The position numbers and the translations under genes are program-made. A DNA stretch of 59,495 nt from a virus (taxonomy: Duplodnaviria > Caudoviricetes): IMG/VR virus record IMGVR_UViG_3300042898_004908, positions 1 to 59,495 of that record. One strand, written 5' to 3'. The notes beneath the pieces are model-generated. The model saw nothing but the letters and a program-made list of their open reading frames with translations. It did no database searches and was not told where the DNA came from. Numbering within the stretch: the first letter of the stretch is position 1; every line of letters starts with the position of its first letter. This document shows positions 1,715 through 30,604 of the stretch, piece by piece.

Positions 1715-2614
1715 ATGTCAAATCTAATTTTTTTTACTCAAGATGTACCTGGTGAGAGAGAATGGCTGTATAGCTTGTTCCCTGACCACCTGTGTCTTGA
1801 AACACAATCTTCAGGTCGGTGGAATACTGTGACCAGTAACCCTGTAATTTGGGAGGTTCCAGGGCCTGATCAACATTTAGACCTCCATTCCAAGTTAGAC
1901 GGTTCCAAAGTCAAATCCATTTTTCAGCAAGACTTGCCCATTGAAACATTGTTAAATGATACCGGATGGTTAGACTCCGAGGATTTGTATCTACACAACA
2001 AACTTAATTTTGCAGATGCTGACTCAGATGCGGCAATTAGTCAATACCAAATGTTTACTTTTGCTCGGTGTGGTACTGTGTTTACTGAATCAATTCTTCA
2101 GAAAAAGTATCCGGTCATTGAGCATCATTATGTTCTAGAAAACAACTTACCTCGAATCGTCACAGCGTGTCAAAATACACAAACACTTATTTGCTTGTTG
2201 TATCGTCGTGATTGGTGGAGTTGGCTTGTCAGCAACATAATCTCAGAAAACAACGATTATTATCATTATTATTCAAATGTTAATTTTGCAAACTTAAATT
2301 CTGTAGAAATTGGCCCTGCACAAATTGAACTGTACGAAGAAAGAATTAGATCAATTTTTAATTTCTGGTGCAATCTTAGAATGTGCCTGCCTTTGCATCA
2401 ATTTAAACTTTTTGAGTTTGCAGATGTTATTAAACAAAATCAATCAAACACCGATCACAAAAAAATTCCTTACAATCCTGCAGACTTTGTAGTGAATCAT
2501 GAAAAATCAAAATTGCTATTTGAAGAAGAATACTTACCTCGTTGGCAAGAAATTGAACGCAACAGTTTGCATCATTTGTCTGCAATGAAGGTCAACCTTA
2601 CATCAACCATATGA
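1715..2614 (+). CDS. Hypothetical protein with a sulfotransferase-like C-terminal domain
   Basis: FTFARCGTVFTESIL resembles the 5'-PSB loop (xxRSGT); LLYRRDWWSWLVS resembles the 3'-PB motif (R...S). Confidence 0.45.
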   Translation: MSNLIFFTQDVPGEREWLYSLFPDHLCLETQSSGRWNTVTSNPVIWEVPGPDQHLDLHSKLDGSKVKSIFQQDLPIETLLNDTGWLDSEDLYLHNKLNFADADSDAAISQYQMFTFARCGTVFTESILQKKYPVIEHHYVLENNLPRIVTACQNTQTLICLLYRRDWWSWLVSNIISENNDYYHYYSNVNFANLNSVEIGPAQIELYEERIRSIFNFWCNLRMCLPLHQFKLFEFADVIKQNQSNTDHKKIPYNPADFVVNHEKSKLLFEEEYLPRWQEIERNSLHHLSAMKVNLTSTI

Positions 2615-3624
2615 ATTTATTTAAAAAAGCCGCGATCTTCACTGACATTCACTTTGGACTGAAGTCAAATAGTATTCTACACAACGAAGACTGTTTGACC
2701 TTTGTCAAATGGGCCACTGCCAAAGCCAAAAGCGAAGGTTGCGAAACCTGCTTGTTTTTGGGAGATTGGCACAACAATCGAGCCAACCTCAATATTGTCA
2801 CGCTAAACTACAGTCTACAAGCACTGGAGCACATGAATGCCAACTTTGAGCATGTGTACTTTATTCCTGGCAATCATGACTTGTATTATCGCGATAAGAG
2901 AGATATACAGAGTGTGGAGTGGGCAAAGCATCTCCCCAATGTTGAAATCTGCAACAATTGGTTTGACGGTGGCAATGTGATCATTGCTCCTTGGCTCTGC
3001 GGAGACGATCATAAACGCATACCCAAACTAAAGGGCAAGTACATGTTCGGGCACTTTGAACTGCCTGGCTACTTGATGAACGCCATGGTGGAAATGCCCG
3101 ATCACGGTGAAGTGCGTAGAGAAGACTTCAACAACTTTGAACATGTGTTTACTGGACACTTTCACAAGCGACAGACCAAAAAAAATATCACCTACATTGG
3201 CAACTGTTTCCCGCACAACTATGCTGACGCTGGTGACGACGAGCGTGGACTAACTGTATTAGAATGGGGGCATGATCCTGTGTATCATGCATGGCCAGAT
3301 CAGCCCAGTTACAGAGTCTACGGACTGGCCAATTTGATCGACAATGCCGCCAGCTTGCTTCGACCCAAGATGCATGTGCGTGTTAATTTAGATATTGAAA
3401 TCAGCTACGAAGAAGCTAATTTTATCAAAGAAACATTTATTCAGCAGTACGGACTGAGAGAAATGGCCCTCATCCCCAACAAGGCCGCCGGAGTAGAAGT
3501 TGACCTGGCGCCTGGAGAAATTAAATTTGAGTCAGTTGATCAAATTGTAACAGATCAAATTACAAATATTGAATCAGAATTTTACGACAACAAATTGTTG
3601 CTGAAAATTTATCAAAATCTATGA
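2611..3624 (+). CDS. gp47: gp47-like recombination endonuclease (Mre11/SbcD metallophosphoesterase)
   Basis: DIHFG, GDW, GNHD, GHFH phosphoesterase motifs; synteny with gp55 and gp46. Confidence 0.92.
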   Translation: MNLFKKAAIFTDIHFGLKSNSILHNEDCLTFVKWATAKAKSEGCETCLFLGDWHNNRANLNIVTLNYSLQALEHMNANFEHVYFIPGNHDLYYRDKRDIQSVEWAKHLPNVEICNNWFDGGNVIIAPWLCGDDHKRIPKLKGKYMFGHFELPGYLMNAMVEMPDHGEVRREDFNNFEHVFTGHFHKRQTKKNITYIGNCFPHNYADAGDDERGLTVLEWGHDPVYHAWPDQPSYRVYGLANLIDNAASLLRPKMHVRVNLDIEISYEEANFIKETFIQQYGLREMALIPNKAAGVEVDLAPGEIKFESVDQIVTDQITNIESEFYDNKLLLKIYQNL

Positions 3625-8060: not shown

Positions 8061-8587
8061 AAGTCATAGAGAAATACTCTGACGGTGCTATTCTTGACAC
8101 TGCAGAAGTTGTCACACAGAGATTTCAAAAATCAATATATGATATATCTACAGGAGTAACAGAGTCTATTAGATCAAAATTGCTGCCAGGCAAAACGGTA
8201 GTGTTATTCAGTGGCAGTTGGAGATTTAACTTTGACGCAGTATATCTAGAAGCTAAAATTTTCGACCGCAACACAATTTCATTGCATAGCCAAACTTATT
8301 TTGTCGAACCTAACAATACAAAACTATTTGACAAAGTCATGCATGGAATCCATGCAACAAACATATTGATATTGCATTCAGGATTTTTTTGCAATTACAA
8401 ATCATTGGATGTAATTGTTGAACAAATGAGCACCTATCAACAATATTGTCCTAAACAAATTGTATTATCAATTCCTCAGGAGCGGGTAAGCTTCAATCGT
8501 TTGAAATACTCTGTAAACGATGTAGCACAGCAATATCAGGCAGAAGTAGTAGACAACTGTTTTATTATACAGATGGTTTCACAATGA
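8057..8587 (+). CDS. Hypothetical protein (cassette gene B')
   Basis: ATGA-coupled; similar length and position to 4054-4629. Confidence 0.65.
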   Translation: MKVIEKYSDGAILDTAEVVTQRFQKSIYDISTGVTESIRSKLLPGKTVVLFSGSWRFNFDAVYLEAKIFDRNTISLHSQTYFVEPNNTKLFDKVMHGIHATNILILHSGFFCNYKSLDVIVEQMSTYQQYCPKQIVLSIPQERVSFNRLKYSVNDVAQQYQAEVVDNCFIIQMVSQ

Positions 8588-9342
8588 CTTTAAATATTTT
8601 AAGATGGCAGGGCGGGTCAGGTGGAGACATGTTGTTGAAATTAATTTCAAGCTCAGCAGTAGTACAAACAAATGCAAAATTTCAATCTGGATTGTCAGCA
8701 CATGGCAAAATATTATTGGATCAGTTGCACCAACCAAGTCAAATAAATTATATTGCAATGGATTTTAACTGCCGGGCATCGATTGACCCAAAATTATTAA
8801 AACAAGAACTTGATCAGATAATTTCTAGTGACCAAATCTGGTGGGTTAAAAGTCATTATTACGAACAGAATTTTTACACTGATTGTATTGTAGACATTGT
8901 AGTTGATCATGAGTTGTTACCTTTTGCTGTGACTGCAAATATCAATAAAACAACAACCATGCAGTCTGACTTTAATCCGTTGGTGGCTAAAATTACTGAT
9001 CCGTATGTTCGATATCAGTACTCAATTTACAGTTTAGCTAAAGATTTTGTTTATCCATACAACACCAAGCGCATTATACAATTGAAACAATTGTTATCTG
9101 GATGGGATCAATTAAAGAACGCACTAGATTCGTTGAATATATCACTTGACGAGAAACTAAAAAGTTTTTATCAAGATTGGTTAACGCTCAATACTATGTA
9201 CATGCCAACACCTGCGTATCAACATCTTGTCAAGACACAAGATTACAATATGGATCACCCTGATCTTACACTGGTTGAAAAATATTGTTTGTTAGTTCTT
9301 GCTGGACGCAAATTTCAAATGCTGGATCAAAATGAAGTTTGA
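8584..9342 (+). CDS. Hypothetical sulfotransferase/P-loop-like protein (cassette gene C')
   Basis: ILRWQGGSGGDMLL glycine loop; WVKSH motif typical of sulfotransferase-fold proteins. Confidence 0.6.
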   Translation: MTLNILRWQGGSGGDMLLKLISSSAVVQTNAKFQSGLSAHGKILLDQLHQPSQINYIAMDFNCRASIDPKLLKQELDQIISSDQIWWVKSHYYEQNFYTDCIVDIVVDHELLPFAVTANINKTTTMQSDFNPLVAKITDPYVRYQYSIYSLAKDFVYPYNTKRIIQLKQLLSGWDQLKNALDSLNISLDEKLKSFYQDWLTLNTMYMPTPAYQHLVKTQDYNMDHPDLTLVEKYCLLVLAGRKFQMLDQNEV

Positions 9343-10438
9343 TTTTAACACAGTTGACGAGTACCAACTTGAAATTACCACTTATTGCAATGCGGCATGC
9401 CCTCAGTGTCCTCGAAACAAGCTCGGTGCAGGCATCAATCCTTACATGCCATTAACACATCTGCCACGCAAGGTCATTGATACAGCATTCACTATTGATC
9501 TATGCCAGAGGCTACGACAAATATTTTTCTGTGGCAGTTACGGTGATCCCATCATGCACCCTGACTTCCTGGAAATTTTAAAAGACTTTAGATCAAAGAA
9601 TCCCACATTGTGGTTGTATTTTCATACCAATGGTGGTGTTCACGATCCAGAGTACTGGGCAGAAATTGCTCGTATCATGAATGGGTACGGACAAATTGAC
9701 TTTGGCATCGATGGACTCAAAGACACTTTACATTTGTATCGTAAAAATGTAAAATACAGCAAGGTCATTGAAAATGCGCAGGCGTTTATCAATGCCGGAG
9801 GCAGAGCACAGTGGAACTTTATTGTGTTTAAACACAATGAACATCAAGTAGAAACTGTAAAGCAACTGGGCCAAGAGATGAAATTCTTCAATGTGTTGAT
9901 TCGCAAGACTGGTAGATTTTTAAATCATACTGAACTAGAAGAAATAGAAGCGTGGCCCATTGCTGGCAGCAATCATGTGCTAGAGCCGCCAGACAATATA
10001 GAATATAGAAATCAAAGTATAATGTTTTTGCCCAATCTCAAACAAGAGTATAGCAAAGTTCAAGACTATTTTGAAACTACTCCTATCAAGTGTGATGCGT
10101 TACAAGGCCGTAAGGTTGCCATCAATGCTGAAGGATTGGTATTACCGTGTAACTTTTTCAATCACAATTTGTACGATGCAAGATTTAGAGATGGTAGTTT
10201 GCCAGGAGCCCATGCTCTTGCACAACCCAATGGATCTAATCAGGTGAGAGATTTTTTGTCAAAATACGGATTTGAAAACTTAAACATTCATCACCGTACA
10301 CTAGAAAGAGTTTTTGACAATCCCATGTGGAATGATCTAGTAGATAGTTTTACCAACAGCAATCGATTGTTCGAGTGCGCAATGACTTGTGGTAGTCGGC
10401 TGCAAAAAGTTTGGGATCAAGGAGGATCCAACAGATGA
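9332..10438 (+). CDS. Radical SAM protein with a SPASM/twitch-like C-terminus
   Basis: CNAACPQC (CxxxCxxC), GSYGDP, HTNG, INAEGLVLPC, terminal CAMTC; start reassigned to ATG 9332. Confidence 0.9.
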   Translation: MKFDFNTVDEYQLEITTYCNAACPQCPRNKLGAGINPYMPLTHLPRKVIDTAFTIDLCQRLRQIFFCGSYGDPIMHPDFLEILKDFRSKNPTLWLYFHTNGGVHDPEYWAEIARIMNGYGQIDFGIDGLKDTLHLYRKNVKYSKVIENAQAFINAGGRAQWNFIVFKHNEHQVETVKQLGQEMKFFNVLIRKTGRFLNHTELEEIEAWPIAGSNHVLEPPDNIEYRNQSIMFLPNLKQEYSKVQDYFETTPIKCDALQGRKVAINAEGLVLPCNFFNHNLYDARFRDGSLPGAHALAQPNGSNQVRDFLSKYGFENLNIHHRTLERVFDNPMWNDLVDSFTNSNRLFECAMTCGSRLQKVWDQGGSNR

Positions 10439-11019
10439 AAGTATTAGTAACAGGTGGCAACAAAGGCCTAGGATTACATTTAGTTGAAACATTTGCCGGT
10501 GTTAGCACAAGTCGTGCCGACGGTTTTGATATTACAAAAAATGTAGAAGACATTGCCAACATGAGTTTGGACTACGATGTTTTTATCAACAATGCGTTTG
10601 ATGGGCCTCCGCAAGAATCCTGGGCCAACTTTGGTCAATCACAGATGTATTTTGCAGTGTACGATGCATGGAAAGCAAGCAACAAAGTTGGACATATTTT
10701 CAATATAGGGTCTGTTGGTGAAAAAACTATCACAGCTCCTGAGCCCAGGTTTGAAACTTATCGTGTCAGCAAGGCTGCATTATCGCATGCCAGCCGGCAG
10801 GGAACACAAGCATTTAAACAAAATTTAGTGCCGTTTAAGACTACATTGATCACCCTGGATCGACTAGACACAGAATTAAGCCGTAGTAGACCTACATGGA
10901 CTGGCAACGGCATTGAATTATTGGACATCAGCAACTTTATCAAATACGCTATCTCAGTGCAAAAAAATACTGTGGTAGAAGAGGCAACTTTTTACATCAA
11001 TTTCAACTATACGGCATAA
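10435..11019 (+). CDS. Short-chain dehydrogenase/reductase (SDR)
   Basis: VTGGNKGLG (TGxxxGxG), INNA, NIGS, YRVSK (YxxxK). Confidence 0.85.
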   Translation: MKVLVTGGNKGLGLHLVETFAGVSTSRADGFDITKNVEDIANMSLDYDVFINNAFDGPPQESWANFGQSQMYFAVYDAWKASNKVGHIFNIGSVGEKTITAPEPRFETYRVSKAALSHASRQGTQAFKQNLVPFKTTLITLDRLDTELSRSRPTWTGNGIELLDISNFIKYAISVQKNTVVEEATFYINFNYTA

Positions 11020-11022
11020 CTA
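11017..11022 (+). promoter_or_regulatory. Possible late promoter variant TAACTA for the GIY-YIG gene and downstream RNA
   Basis: One-base variant of TAAATA at the SDR stop codon; same variant at 30632. Confidence 0.35.
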
Positions 11023-11051
11023 TAAAGCAAGGACACACCCACCAAAAACAC

Positions 11052-11480
11052 ATGACATGGCTACATCAAGACACCCCAGTTGAGACTCTGCCCGAAGAAT
11101 GTGTTGGTTTTGTTTACTTGATCACAAATAATCTTTCAGGACGCAAGTACATAGGCAAAAAATTAGCAAAATTTAGCAAAACAACATACAAGACTGTAAA
11201 ACAAAAAAACGGCACAAAAAAGAAGAAAAAGATACGATCAAAGGTCGACTCAGACTGGAGAGAGTACTATGGGTCAAGCCCAGAATTAACTTCAGACATC
11301 GAAAAACTAGGCACCGAAAACTTCACCAGAGAAATACTTTTTTATTGCAACTCTAAAAGCGAATGTAGTTACATCGAAGCAAGAGAGCAATTTTCAAGAA
11401 GAGTATTGGAATCACGAGATTATTACAACGGCCACATACAAGTGCGTGTGCATGGCTCTCATATAATAGACAAACTGTAA
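11052..11480 (+). CDS. Minimal GIY-YIG nuclease-domain protein with a Lys-rich insertion
   Basis: GFVYLITN...KYIGKK, YYGSS, conserved E (YIEAREQ), YYN; no C-terminal DNA-binding domain. Confidence 0.8.
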   Translation: MTWLHQDTPVETLPEECVGFVYLITNNLSGRKYIGKKLAKFSKTTYKTVKQKNGTKKKKKIRSKVDSDWREYYGSSPELTSDIEKLGTENFTREILFYCNSKSECSYIEAREQFSRRVLESRDYYNGHIQVRVHGSHIIDKL

Positions 11481-11489
11481 GGCAACAAC

Positions 11490-11914
11490 AACGACACTGT
11501 GTTGGGCGATGTGGCTCAACCCCATTGAGGATATGTGCAATACCATATTTGGACTTGGGCGTCAAAGGCAATTGCTAACTTAAGGCAACAAATGGTCGGG
11601 GCCATGTGAAAAAGATACAACCCCAGCTTATAGGACTTGGATTTATTATTGGGTCACTAGGGTTCCGTTGATATGTGAAGCTAGAGTAAGGGGTACCGGT
11701 CAACCGCCTCTGCGTAGGAAACTACAATCTCTTTATAATAAATGACTGGGCTACTCAGATAATGCTCTTTCATATTCACCGTGCATACGGTGAATTATGA
11801 CCAGTTAATCTAGATAATAGCTTAAATCGCTTCGCTCTTGTAATAGAAATAAAAAATATTGATGAGCAAAGCGAATCAATAGAACTTCGTTAGAAGTTCT
11901 CAAACAGTGTTGTT
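11490..11914 (+). ncRNA. Putative ~425-nt structured non-coding RNA of unknown family
   Basis: Only long gap in a densely coding genome. Closing stem 11490-11500/11904-11914, about ten hairpins including GUAG-GAAA-CUAC, a 9-bp long-range pairing, and G-U pairs favouring the + strand. Confidence 0.65.
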
Positions 11915-12248
11915 ATAAGTTGGTATCTGGCCAATCTCTAAACAATGCATGTTGTATATCACCTGATACAAACTGATTGAATGACTTGTGTTTTACTTCG
12001 AGTTCGCCTTCTAGTGGTGCTACTCGCTTGAATGCACTATCCATTTGCCCCATGTCGCGGAACTCCATGAGTATCATCCATTCAGGCATGTCGGCAATAG
12101 ATCTAAAACCCATCTTGCATCTTGTGATTCTGTACGATACCATTTTGTCTTCTGACACAAGATGATCAAAGAAACTTTTCATTCCGTTGACCCAGTCTAA
12201 GTCTGATATATCGCCTTCTTTGTTTGCCCAAATTGTATAAATGTCCAT
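11913..12248 (-). CDS. DUF6614-like small alpha/beta-barrel protein
   Basis: MDIYTIW...YRITRCKMG...EW.I.MEF....Q.D.AF...ALFRDWPD resembles this family as recalled; not searched. Confidence 0.55.
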   Translation of the reverse strand: MDIYTIWANKEGDISDLDWVNGMKSFFDHLVSEDKMVSYRITRCKMGFRSIADMPEWMILMEFRDMGQMDSAFKRVAPLEGELEVKHKSFNQFVSGDIQHALFRDWPDTNL

Positions 12249-12250
12249 AG

Positions 12251-12685
12251 TTACTCCAGTGGTCCTAATAATTCAAAGCCGTCCATGTCGGCTTTGTATA
12301 AGTGCGCTTGCTCAAGGTACAAGTACTTGAATCCTCGTTCTCGGTAGATAGCACACTCTGCTTTCATTGTTTCGATACCCAATCTCATTTTGGGTCGGTG
12401 ATAGCTCCATGCGAATTGATCGCATAATGCATTCTGATCATCGTAGCGTTTGATCAACGAGAACGCCACAAGTTTATCTACATCGTAATACCCAATCACA
12501 TCAGTCATAGGATCTGTATAACGACTGTCAAAGATGGGCATAACTGATGCAAAGTGTTTGTACAGACAGTAGTCTCTGTAGATTTTGTTTAGATTTGCAA
12601 TGTCAGGATTGTGCAGGTACTCCCATTTGACATTGATTTTGTAATTGGTTTTTGATAGATCAATTCTGGCAAACTGATAGGTCAT
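12251..12685 (-). CDS. GNAT-fold protein resembling the C-terminal domain of aminoacyl-tRNA--protein transferases (ATE1/Bpt)
   Basis: KLVAFS...AWSYHRPKMRLGIETMKAE...RGFKYLYL...YK matches the ATE_C pattern (SLG...E.......G..YYYLG...YK); start reassigned to ATG 12685 (ATGA overlap). Confidence 0.55.
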   Translation of the reverse strand: MTYQFARIDLSKTNYKINVKWEYLHNPDIANLNKIYRDYCLYKHFASVMPIFDSRYTDPMTDVIGYYDVDKLVAFSLIKRYDDQNALCDQFAWSYHRPKMRLGIETMKAECAIYRERGFKYLYLEQAHLYKADMDGFELLGPLE

Positions 12686-13185
12686 ATTCTTGGATCCTGT
12701 CTGTGCTGAAACAAAGCAGTGAGATAATCTTTGGGCCAGGAATCGTAGAAACCTTTGCGAGCCATCTGTGCGGCCTTGATATTCAAGTCGCTGAGACTTT
12801 GCACCAGAGCCAAAGCATAGGTGCCCTGATTCATACAAATGCCATTGACTATTTCTTGGTCACTGGGATGATCTTCTAGTGCAAGAATGTCTGATGCCAA
12901 CAAAAAGTCTTGATGTGCCTGCTCTAGGCTGCTGGCAAATAACTCATGTGGCCATTCTGCAGGATCATATGCATAGATAATCACTTCCTTGTTGCCCATG
13001 CCATACCGTGCTCGATTTTTGAGATCAAAGTAAGGATCACTGCCAATGAACACATCATAGCTTTGTTTTAGTCTTGCACTGCGAGCATATGGGCACGGAG
13101 GAAACCCGCCCAAGGCAGGATGTGGAACTTCTACAAAGTTCACAATCCACTGTTCAATATCTTTTTTTACCTGATCAATATCCAT
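12682..13185 (-). CDS. DUF1415-like protein
   Basis: W...FV....LGGFPPCPYA and DHP motifs; start reassigned to ATG 13185. Confidence 0.5.
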   Translation of the reverse strand: MDIDQVKKDIEQWIVNFVEVPHPALGGFPPCPYARSARLKQSYDVFIGSDPYFDLKNRARYGMGNKEVIIYAYDPAEWPHELFASSLEQAHQDFLLASDILALEDHPSDQEIVNGICMNQGTYALALVQSLSDLNIKAAQMARKGFYDSWPKDYLTALFQHRQDPRI

Positions 13186-29638: not shown

Positions 29639-29700
29639 GGCAATATTTAATAACACATGTCTGGCCTGGCGTTATTTCTTGTTTTCGCTAAATACTGGTC

Positions 29701-29772
29701 AACGCAAATCGGCGTTTTATGCAGGACACCACTGCGTAGCGGCTAGAACCCGCATCGGGCTTCTATAAGGAG
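29701..29772 (+). promoter_or_regulatory. Structured 5' leader (three hairpins and a possible pseudoknot) of the 29780 gene
   Basis: Follows TAAATA 29689-29694. Stems AACGC/GCGTT, TATGCAG/CTGCGTA, GCGG/CCGC; loop TAGAA complementary to TTCTA next to the RBS. Confidence 0.5.
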
Positions 29773-29779
29773 AAATCAA

Positions 29780-30604
29780 ATGGGAAGAGCTCTAAAAATT
29801 CAAAAAACTGGTTCCAACGGCATCACAATTAATGCCAACGGAACAGTTAACACACCAGCGGCATCAGTAGCAGTTGATCAAGGTTTTCCAAACTTTGGAT
29901 CACTAACTGATCCAGTTTACAACTCACCAGTTCAAACACTGACTTCAAGTCAATTCTTGGGTGTGGTTGGTGGTGCACCTGTACTCAGTTCACCAACCAC
30001 AACATATCCAGAAATTTCACCCCAAGTGAATATTGCATTGCCAGATGGCACCGGCCAAGGAGTAGCAACTGGTCGTATCATCCGTCAAAAGGGTGCGCAC
30101 AAATTCCTGGTATCCAGCAATACCACAGTCAACGACGAAGACATGGTAGTCGGTGCAAGTTACATGATTATATCTCTAGGCGGAACCAATTGGCAACAAA
30201 TGGGTGCTCCTGCTGGTGCCGTTGCTGGTACAATTTTTACCTGTACAGCCACAGTAGCAACTGCATCAACCGGTACTGGCGTATTGGTTGGCCAGTGCGT
30301 GTTGGCCAACACTGCCACACCAACAGCTGGCTTCATGAGCATCAGCTATTCAGTAGGCGACAGCGTGGCAGTATATGCCAGCTACATTACCAACAAGTGG
30401 GTGCGTGATTGGACTGGTATGACTTATCAGAACTACAGCAACAGCAACCTTGGACCAAACATTCAAAGCAATGAAAACTTCTATGTTACCAACTTCTTCA
30501 CAGACGAAGGCACAGTCACATGGTCTGGTGCAGAAATCATTGGCGGAGCAGATGCTCAAAATGGTTCCTTGCAATTGGCTCAAATTACCAACATTACTTC
30601 GTAA
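29780..30604 (+). CDS. Hypothetical virion structural protein
   Basis: Late promoter, strong TAAGGAG RBS; MGRALKIQK, IIRQKGAHKFLV. Confidence 0.7.
   Translation: MGRALKIQKTGSNGITINANGTVNTPAASVAVDQGFPNFGSLTDPVYNSPVQTLTSSQFLGVVGGAPVLSSPTTTYPEISPQVNIALPDGTGQGVATGRIIRQKGAHKFLVSSNTTVNDEDMVVGASYMIISLGGTNWQQMGAPAGAVAGTIFTCTATVATASTGTGVLVGQCVLANTATPTAGFMSISYSVGDSVAVYASYITNKWVRDWTGMTYQNYSNSNLGPNIQSNENFYVTNFFTDEGTVTWSGAEIIGGADAQNGSLQLAQITNITS

Follow-up and report, generated by a model that had tools for sequence, protein, structure and literature searches.

Large, ornate RNAs encoded by phages, such as GOLLD and ROOL, are presented in the relevant part of bioRxiv 10.1101/2024.12.08.627333 as having no known function and no known protein partner. 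In OMEGA systems (TnpB or IscB with omega-RNA), a small nuclease gene has a structured RNA encoded right at its 3' end, in the same orientation. Weinberg et al. (2010, PMC2864571) tabulated the Polynucleobacter-1 motif, from Burkholderiales and fresh water, as probably cis-regulatory, and the main text of that paper, its supplement aside, holds no mention of GIY-YIG. Here, we analyze a stretch of 59,495 nt (the window), positions 1 to 59,495 of the IMG/VR virus record IMGVR_UViG_3300042898_004908, in which a gene for a 142-aa GIY-YIG nuclease is followed on the same strand by a structured RNA of ~410 nt.

The window RNA resembles GOLLD and ROOL in the respects just given, although it is about half their size and has no Rfam match to either, and in complete genomes of its lineage the tRNA islands lie ~75-80 kb away from it. 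Its position and orientation are those of an OMEGA RNA; however, the nuclease fold is GIY-YIG instead of RuvC or HNH, transposon ends were not seen, the RNA has no hypervariable terminal guide, and the nuclease family is common without it. The nuclease shares its catalytic family and fold with the T4 Seg endonucleases and the I-TevI catalytic domain, and it lies, as they do, in a variable region of a T4-like genome, yet unlike the Seg enzymes it lacks a C-terminal DNA-binding domain and is not sporadic. It is also like T4 endonuclease II (denA), a short stand-alone GIY-YIG enzyme whose gene is placed after nrdB, as is the homolog of the window nuclease in some cyanophages. Orthology with denA was rejected (BLASTP E 5, different Pfam family), and the PDB profile search made in that check came back empty.

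A preliminary description of the window had proposed a nuclease-RNA system, possibly RNA-guided. We found that one part of this proposal stands, namely a conserved, co-oriented and linked noncoding RNA, while the idea that the RNA gives the nuclease its specificity is not supported. We tentatively favor a stand-alone, trans-acting phage noncoding RNA that is co-transcribed with the nuclease gene and is not a cofactor of the nuclease.

A structured RNA directly behind a nuclease gene

The gene and the RNA occupy the following positions.

11052 to 11480, + strand: stand-alone GIY-YIG nuclease gene, 142 aa (SegE_GIY-YIG, phrog_447), from Pfam, PHROG, conserved residues, AlphaFold and Foldseek
11491 to 11900, + strand: whole structured RNA, variant A, ~410 nt, delimited by conservation from ~10 nt past the stop codon to the 3' hairpin

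The stretch after the nuclease stop had been described as lacking credible open reading frames (ORFs), and we found none of at least 30 aa on the + strand in 11481-11912. It also folds as extensively as had been claimed: the + strand reached -125.2 kcal/mol (z -2.94) and the - strand a z of -3.93, and on neither strand did any of 100 shuffles do better. Relatives of the nuclease were present in 596 of 599 matched viral stretches, of which we analyzed the best 80. In most of these 80 loci, the nuclease stop is followed by ~380-490 nt without ORFs of at least 50 aa, and in a few an inserted ORF of 238-337 aa lies ahead of the ORF-free stretch. The window's own RNA type follows the gene in 35 of the 80, with long matches 77-91% identical, and overall the structured RNA is conserved in more than 100 viral contigs.

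We modeled the structure from mutual information on a set of 97 unique RNAs together with RNAalifold, which gave 99 pairs in 18 helix segments and a consensus fold of about 14 helices and one pseudoknot. In an alignment of 30 homologous variant A RNAs (A1), standard pairs filled 94.6% of cells compared to a shuffled mean of 87.0, and 47 of the 99 pairs changed on both sides compared to 22.9 after shuffling; none of 500 shuffles reached either value. The covariation score of A1 was 0.269, and partners slid out of register scored at most 0.079. Covariation and conservation downstream of nuclease homologs, which the preliminary description had named as its check, were thus both present. Since G-U cells outnumbered A-C cells in the alignment (1079 versus 194), the folded strand is the + strand, co-oriented with the gene as first suggested. 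The ~410-nt structured RNA directly 3' of the nuclease gene is real, and a decayed C-terminal domain or hidden ORF is ruled out by the recurrent ORF-free gap of ~380-490 nt together with the compensatory changes.

An Rfam scan of the window RNA gave no match at the gathering score, and none at E<=10 on 10900-12100, while ARAGORN found no tRNA or transfer-messenger RNA (tmRNA) in the window or in seven related loci. The absence of RNase P, tmRNA, group I or II intron and tRNA motifs noted at the outset was therefore borne out by both programs, and GOLLD, ROOL, HEARO and RAGATH were rejected on the same grounds. The sole weak Rfam match, MIR395 (18.7 bits, E 0.73), was judged a chance long hairpin. 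The gene 5' of the nuclease gene stops at 11019 and the next gene, DUF6614 (11913-12248, minus strand), converges on the RNA, an arrangement that, with no Rfam intron match, is not that of a group I intron. The genes upstream of the nuclease differ between loci, which also counts against an interrupted host gene.

We assessed linkage with a 52-position degenerate pattern from the RNA core, which fetched at least 118 contigs; the locus counts refer to those listed. A GIY-YIG gene lies upstream on the same strand in 108 of these loci, nine could not be judged (seven cut at a contig end, and L137 and L138 cut inside an inserted ORF) and one is without it, hence 108 of 109 assessable loci. Gene and RNA are directly adjacent in 85 and separated by 0.3-2 kb of other ORFs in 23. 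Among loci fetched through DUF6614, the nuclease gene was present wherever there was enough room (62/62). A covariance model of the RNA's 3' module matched exactly once in each of five large records out of five, four of them 95-100% complete, and each of four large records out of four holds one short PF19835 gene. These results support a conserved, covarying, co-oriented noncoding RNA in tight linkage with the nuclease gene.

As a hot spot of insertion, the gap between gene and RNA has taken up at least five unrelated ORF families (240-356 aa), which account for the 23 interrupted loci among the 108 listed; examples are L003:3440-4450, L047:3365-4432, L077:3428-4252, L085:4369-5256 and L161:908-1636. 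Six inserted ORFs from four families had no Pfam match, and two had no PHROG match. At locus L135, a PD-(D/E)XK nuclease gene (2296-2805, minus strand; PF24608, E 1e-24; phrog_244, RusA-like) directly precedes the RNA, and the GIY-YIG gene was not found on this 15-kb contig.

Within the RNA we distinguish the following elements, listed from 5' to 3'; pair types are counted over the 97 unique RNAs.

11493 to 11563, + strand: 5' domain, with closing helix 11493-95/11561-63 and covariation in helices 1-4
11572 to 11588, + strand: hairpin TTGCT/GGCAA with the conserved loop AACTTAA; 11572:11588 is UA in 64 and CG in 17 of 97
11598 to 11624, + strand: hairpin GGGG/CCCC with an inner 3-bp extension; 11598:11624 has four pair types
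11631 to 11659, + strand: hairpin with the pseudoknot-forming loop 11641-11648 (helix 8, 99.7% paired)
11656 to 11733, + strand: near-invariant core, from which the 52-nt degenerate pattern, exact in at least 118 contigs, was taken
11736 to 11743, + strand: 3' strand of the pseudoknot, partner of 11641-11648 (helix 9, 5/8 pairs change on both sides)
11742 to 11765, + strand: repeat unit 1 (ATGAC..CTC and R1 at 11757-11763), unpaired in the consensus fold
11774 to 11795, + strand: almost invariant hairpin TTCACCGT-GCAT-ACGGTGAA between the repeat units; 11781:11788 is GC in 91 and CG in 6 of 97
11797 to 11820, + strand: repeat unit 2 (ATGAC..TCT and R2 at 11812-11818), unpaired in the consensus fold
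11824 to 11839, + strand: small GC-TTC-GC element, read from alignments
11858 to 11880, + strand: tandem G-A/A-G hairpin (ATTGAT-GA-GC..GC-GA-ATCAAT), helices 16-17
11881 to 11900, + strand: 3'-terminal hairpin AGAACTTC-GTTA-GAAGTTCT, covarying; 11887:11893 has five pair types

In the 5' domain, the closing helix encloses hairpin 11501-20 and helix 11521-24/11556-59, the latter enclosing hairpin 11529-50, and 2/3, 6/7, 3/4 and 5/7 pairs of helices 1-4 change on both sides. The core comprises the proposed hairpin 11660-82, helix 11683-86/11729-32, hairpin 11689-11711 (with CGG-TCAA-CCG) and the GNRA hairpin 11714-25. Pair 11683:11732 is UA in 49 and AU in 47 RNAs, 11689:11711 is GC in 72 and AU in 25, and 11716:11723 occurs as four types. 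The sequence of 11660-82 never varies among the RNAs, and CGG-TCAA-CCG is invariant and hence without a covariation signal. Farther 3', all eight Watson-Crick pairs of the G-A hairpin change on both sides, and it is 100% paired in A1. The 3'-terminal hairpin scores 56.5% in A1 because its register is shifted by one base in relatives. The GC-TTC-GC element forms a clean hairpin in many RNAs of variants B and C (see below), is degenerate in the window and is missing from some variant A RNAs.

Measured against this alignment, the helices first drawn from the single sequence fared unevenly. The pseudoknot 11641-48/11736-43 is among the best supported, being 96.8% paired in addition to its compensatory changes, and support also extends to 11501-07/11514-20, 11529-35/11544-50, 11572-76/11584-88, 11598-601/11621-24 and the GNRA hairpin. 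In contrast, the stem thought to close the ends (11490-500/11904-14) has paired bases in only 44% of cells, and the true partner of its 5' arm is 11561-63, where a GTC pairs with the 5' ACGAC. AGCTT/AAGCT (75.7% paired, zero compensatory changes) and TGACTGG/CCAGTTA (56% paired) also fell away. The stem TTCACCGT/ACGGTGAA is near-invariant: one of its nine pairs changes on both sides in A1, and the 97 RNAs show a few compensatory exchanges at the innermost pairs.

Twin 7-mers and exchangeable domains

The two repeat units follow one pattern: (A/G)TGAC, a few variable bases, an A, a pyrimidine triplet and a 7-mer. The triplet reads CTC in every unit 1 and TCT in every unit 2. The 7-mers, R1 and R2, were identical in 94 of the 97 unique variant A RNAs, compared to 22.2 expected under independent variation, and two of the three mismatches are alignment shifts. 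The R1/R2 positions hold the highest noncanonical mutual information in the whole RNA, with no third partner. Across the variants there are about 13 alleles, few and mostly related by transitions, in elements of 7-9 nt; they include AGATAAT, GGATAAT, AGATGAT, GGATGAT, AGATGAA, GGATGAG, ACATGAA, AGATCAA and AGCTGA.

On a tree built from the remaining RNA, the first variable R position changed at least 18 times, and in every independent pair (12/12) the second copy changed alike (sign test, p about 0.0005); at the second variable position, the change was concerted in six of six. If the module recombines as a block, these counts may be too high, although each allele still requires its own double change.

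We looked for a sequence that R1 and R2 might pair with. Inside the RNA, complements to the 7-mers (Watson-Crick plus G-U) reached 8 of 97 sequences in one bin, and within +-3 kb of the RNA exact complements did not exceed 4/121 in any bin. The window holds 10 matches compared to 7.05 expected, two being R sites themselves, and three complete genomes of ~340 kb hold 7, 8 and 11 compared to 7, 8 and 5 for controls. An exact 10-mer complement 430 nt downstream, in one genome only, was judged chance. Nor did any nuclease residue split cleanly by R allele, the best mutual information being 0.47 bits over 44 sequences collected with a crude ORF finder. Symmetric antiparallel pairing of R1 with R2 is an idea only: some alleles hold 4-nt palindromes (CATG, GATC, AGCT), although their registers differ.

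Two other interpretations of these elements were rejected. Most alleles consist of a sense codon plus TAA or TGA, as a mini-ORF or ribosome hop might have, but the frame of the upstream ATG is not kept among relatives. A box C/D, K-turn or hammerhead reading of GATGA failed because the G varies and the flanking bases lie in a covarying stem. The preliminary description had also suggested looking for a conserved scaffold with a hypervariable guide; an OMEGA-like guide would span ~16 nt or more, and the variable segments here are only two internal elements of 7-9 nt with few alleles.

The RNAs behind homologous nuclease genes fall into at least three sequence types: A (that of the window), B and C. 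All share a 3' module consisting of unit 1, a hairpin, unit 2 with the same 7-mer, the GC-TTC-GC hairpin, the G-A hairpin and the terminal hairpin, while their 5' and central domains differ. The window RNA, with this module directly downstream of a phrog_447 gene, belongs to the family. Among the best 80 loci found through the protein, 35 carry A, 31 carry B and 10 carry C; three have no room after the gene, and L050 has a divergent variant A RNA behind an inserted ORF. Among 80 loci fetched through DUF6614, the RNA is present in 79 (A 47, C 19, B 13). Nucleases ~90% identical to that of the window carry A, B or C, and near-identical nucleases with different RNA variants thus place an exchange point at the stop codon.

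Variant B connects this family to Polynucleobacter-1. Its first ~136 nt are a full-length match to RF01718 (L015:3438-3573, 120.3 bits, E 6e-26), while the window's variant A falls short of the 37-bit gathering score of that model and has no match even at E<=10. Both repeat units, the 3' hairpins and the core GGTACCGG.CAACCGCC are common to variants A and B, and Polynucleobacter-1 occupies the same genomic slot, strand and freshwater habitat as the window RNA. The Rfam motif spans about a third of the variant B RNA and appears to be only the 5' domain of that variant. The window RNA is a relative of Polynucleobacter-1, within the large structured phage RNAs of unknown function.

Searches beyond these contigs returned little. 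Variants A, B and C were not found by blastn in the cultured-phage collection, and DNA similarity to cultured phages was rejected for all three. A 17-nt pattern run over 596 Gb of genome contigs gave one real match among at least 120 listed, a truncated variant B RNA (L309, a stretch of 1.7 kb); the pattern is too short and is uninformative for bacterial genomes.

The nuclease, its family and the source phage

The nuclease matches PF19835 SegE_GIY-YIG (E 4e-33) over residues 3-129, nearly the whole 142-aa protein, and phrog_447 (E 3.5e-38), whose label "NAD synthetase" is a misnomer. Among 33 diverse homologs, Y22, Y33, G35, E109 and N126 are invariant and I34 and R93 are at least 90% conserved. 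The AlphaFold model (pLDDT 94) is a single domain with a basic beta-hairpin at residues 40-66, and its sole meaningful Foldseek match was the I-TevI catalytic domain (1ln0_B, probability 0.99). The protein therefore has the GIY...YIG motifs, conserved Arg, catalytic Glu and Asn and alpha/beta fold of the GIY-YIG superfamily, and it consists, as had been proposed, of a catalytic domain only. It is not a Seg-type homing endonuclease in its architecture, being a single 142-aa domain without a C-terminal DNA-binding domain, nor in its distribution, which is not patchy.

Two further statements about the protein needed revision. The very basic insertion that had been singled out is present, but it is a general feature of the family, found also in phages that lack the RNA, and is merely 6-11 residues longer here. 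The two other homing endonucleases said to lie in the window did not appear in a search with PF01541 at E<=0.01, a search that left the NUMOD and HNH families aside. In a 332-kb relative (G003, the record behind L032), a second SegE_GIY-YIG match lies at 322176-322460, ~12 kb downstream of the RNA, in a 297-aa open frame that resembles a usual homing endonuclease carrying an additional domain.

The family extends far beyond this locus. We found 2200 representatives of the short nuclease at E<=1e-3 in a 50%-clustered library, mostly of 130-165 aa, and a protein search returned at least 8000 clusters of relatives. Among cultured phages, 541 records hold the family, all less than 60% identical to the window protein; the best, Methylophilales phage Melnitz, is 47% identical. 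We inspected 13 of these records, one of which lacks annotation, so counts are on 12: in none of the 12 is there an unannotated gap after the gene big enough for the RNA. A tRNA array follows the homolog in three of six marine cyanophages inspected (S-SM2, Bellamy and SynMITS9220M01) and protein genes follow it in the remaining annotated records. The covariance model of the 3' repeat module found nothing in five whole cultured genomes (best E 0.17). Together with the negative blastn search, these counts are not those of a nuclease dependent on its RNA in the OMEGA manner, and the sequence comparisons support a large, mostly stand-alone family that would need no such RNA. In Synechococcus phage S-SM2 (L200, 2490-3137) and P-HM2 (L207, 1490-2074), the tblastn match spans two short annotated coding sequences, where the gene may be split or misannotated.

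Whatever ORF comes first, its stop codon is followed by the RNA within about 10-20 nt, and no sigma-70-like promoter was predicted in 10300-12400, compared to 5.6 expected. With no T run behind it, the 3' hairpin did not count as a terminator in the scan. A discrete RNA in metatranscriptomes had been named as a further check. Contigs lie on 11038-11837 in four of four runs (four studies), other parts of 10400-12900 being without cover, and in each run a single contig extends across the stop codon into the RNA (11325-11581, 11399-11581, 11445-11583 and 11311-11710). The bridging contigs fit co-transcription of gene and RNA without proving it, since contigs show neither ends nor strand.

The window comes from a T4-like myovirus, as judged from PHROG matches to a gp46/SbcC-like nuclease subunit, baseplate hub, portal and tail sheath. 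CheckV puts the 59.5-kb record at 17% completeness. Relatives have complete genomes of 331-347 kb, two with terminal repeats, and the host virus of the RNA is a giant freshwater phage of this ~340-kb lineage. Genes upstream of the nuclease (8584-11019, including a radical SAM protein and a short-chain dehydrogenase-like protein) occur only in some relatives, while DUF6614 and its neighbors are conserved, with variable inserts of 0-2 kb between them and the RNA. The nuclease-RNA unit is thus flanked by variable islands on both sides. A full-length match to the Rfam freshwater-2 RNA (RF02980, 74.1 bits) lies at 29700-29782 on the + strand and adjoins an ORF starting at 29780, with the start codon directly after the motif. 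In the complete 347-kb relative G001 (the record behind L004), 26 of 27 tRNA hits form an island at 102805-116350; its sister genome G004 has only six hits.

What the RNA may do

Under the reading that we tentatively favor, the RNA would be made as the 3' end of the transcript carrying the GIY-YIG gene and would act alone, in trans, rather than as a cofactor of the nuclease. R1 and R2, single-stranded and held on each side of the invariant hairpin, may be its working surface and may dock two copies of one partner with a host- or phage-specific sequence, most likely a nucleic acid or a protein that binds or cuts RNA in a sequence-specific way. A second module, evolving independently, would be the exchangeable 5' domain, and the nuclease gene would be a fixed neighbor in the same operon. 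Several points weigh against this reading. No partner of R1 and R2 was found, so the trans-docking mechanism is pure inference. The linkage of gene and RNA (108/109 assessable loci and 62/62) is tighter than a mere operon neighborhood requires, and all loci come from a single phage lineage (nucleases 50-95% identical, DUF6614 at least 89%), which makes synteny and function inseparable. The 3' hairpin has no T run and the 3' end is set by conservation only, and contigs from RNA libraries, in which DNA contamination is possible, do not prove transcription, ends or strand.

The likeliest alternative, itself improbable, is that the GIY-YIG gene is a present or former free-standing homing-type endonuclease beside a conserved RNA gene that serves as its target, the RNA having an unrelated function. 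The junction is indeed an insertion hot spot for at least five ORF families, a different nuclease family occupies the same spot in L135, and the RNA variants switch at the stop codon, as expected near a cut that initiates recombination. Moreover, the homolog sits just upstream of a tRNA array in three of the six marine cyanophages inspected, and T4 segB sits in a tRNA region as well. Homing genes would be distributed patchily, however, and this one is present at 62/62 and 108/109 assessable loci, in one copy per genome, with a well-conserved protein and intact catalytic residues across thousands of clusters; having no DNA-binding domain, it would also leave site specificity unexplained. Next in our estimate, and likewise unlikely, is a cis-acting 3' untranslated element that would protect against 3' exonucleases, terminate transcription or insulate against the converging late operon, or autoregulate a toxic nuclease. 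The RNA does start right after the stop codon without a promoter and ends in hairpins facing the converging gene, and Polynucleobacter-1 is marked as likely cis-regulatory in the table of Weinberg et al. (2010, PMC2864571). But a length of ~410 nt, a pseudoknot, a GNRA loop and an invariant core of 50 nt together far exceed what stability or termination needs, the RNA persists behind unrelated upstream ORFs, and its core outlasts the protein, with the exact 52-nt degenerate pattern kept where proteins drop to 50% identity.

A step lower we place a ribonucleoprotein in which the RNA scaffolds or directs the nuclease and R1 and R2 serve as a pair of short guides that might address, for instance, both strands of an inverted-repeat target; we regard this reading as doubtful. 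It would account for the near-universal co-oriented adjacency, for a protein with a long basic beta-hairpin and no DNA-binding tail, and for variable, single-stranded elements kept identical, as two guides to a symmetric target would need; RNA-library contigs also bridge gene and RNA. Yet the nuclease family is widespread and stand-alone without the RNA, with room for it in none of the 12 annotated cultured-phage records and no RNA found there by blastn or the module model, and the basic hairpin is a family feature. ORFs intervene between gene and RNA in 23 of the 108 loci listed, RNA variants are swapped behind nucleases ~90% identical, the 7-mers have few alleles, mostly transitions, which no nuclease residue tracks in our crude test, and complements to R do not exceed controls in three complete genomes (7, 8 and 11 versus 7, 8 and 5). 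RNA-less family members, inserted ORFs, swapped variants and the want of a hypervariable guide thus speak against the RNA-guided nuclease first envisaged. We give little credence to its boldest form, in which R1 and R2 are programmable guides that pair with two target copies or both strands and recruit a nuclease lacking a DNA-binding domain to cut. On a par with that, at the bottom of our ranking, is a decoy for a sequence-specific host ribonuclease or defense protein, which would recognize or cut R1 and R2 alike; phage pseudo-antitoxins of type III toxin-antitoxin systems are a precedent. Two partly repeated units with a period of ~55 nt, each a motif plus a hairpin, evolve in concert, their alleles differ among close relatives as an arms race predicts, and the 5' domains are swapped, but merely about 15 nt of each unit are alike, no ToxN-like gene is involved, though no search aimed at defense genes was made, and most of the 410 nt would be superfluous. 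A milder form of the programmable-guide idea, an RNA principle of two obligately identical sites, such as a symmetric non-Watson-Crick contact or a two-site decoy, fits our observations.

The nuclease family, and by linkage the RNA too, is among the elements most often recovered in freshwater viromes, and the part catalogued so far is 141 nt of a single variant, to which a cis-regulatory role has been assigned by guesswork. That part appears to be the 5' domain of a multidomain RNA of about 420-480 nt with exchangeable versions, which in ~340-kb phages shares a fixed operon with a minimal nuclease and carries two sites that are forced to be identical. Such a constraint to the same base, and not to the complementary base, is a pattern outside what standard covariation tools look for. 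With these features, the RNA family is a tangible and testable case in which to ask about the role of large phage RNAs.

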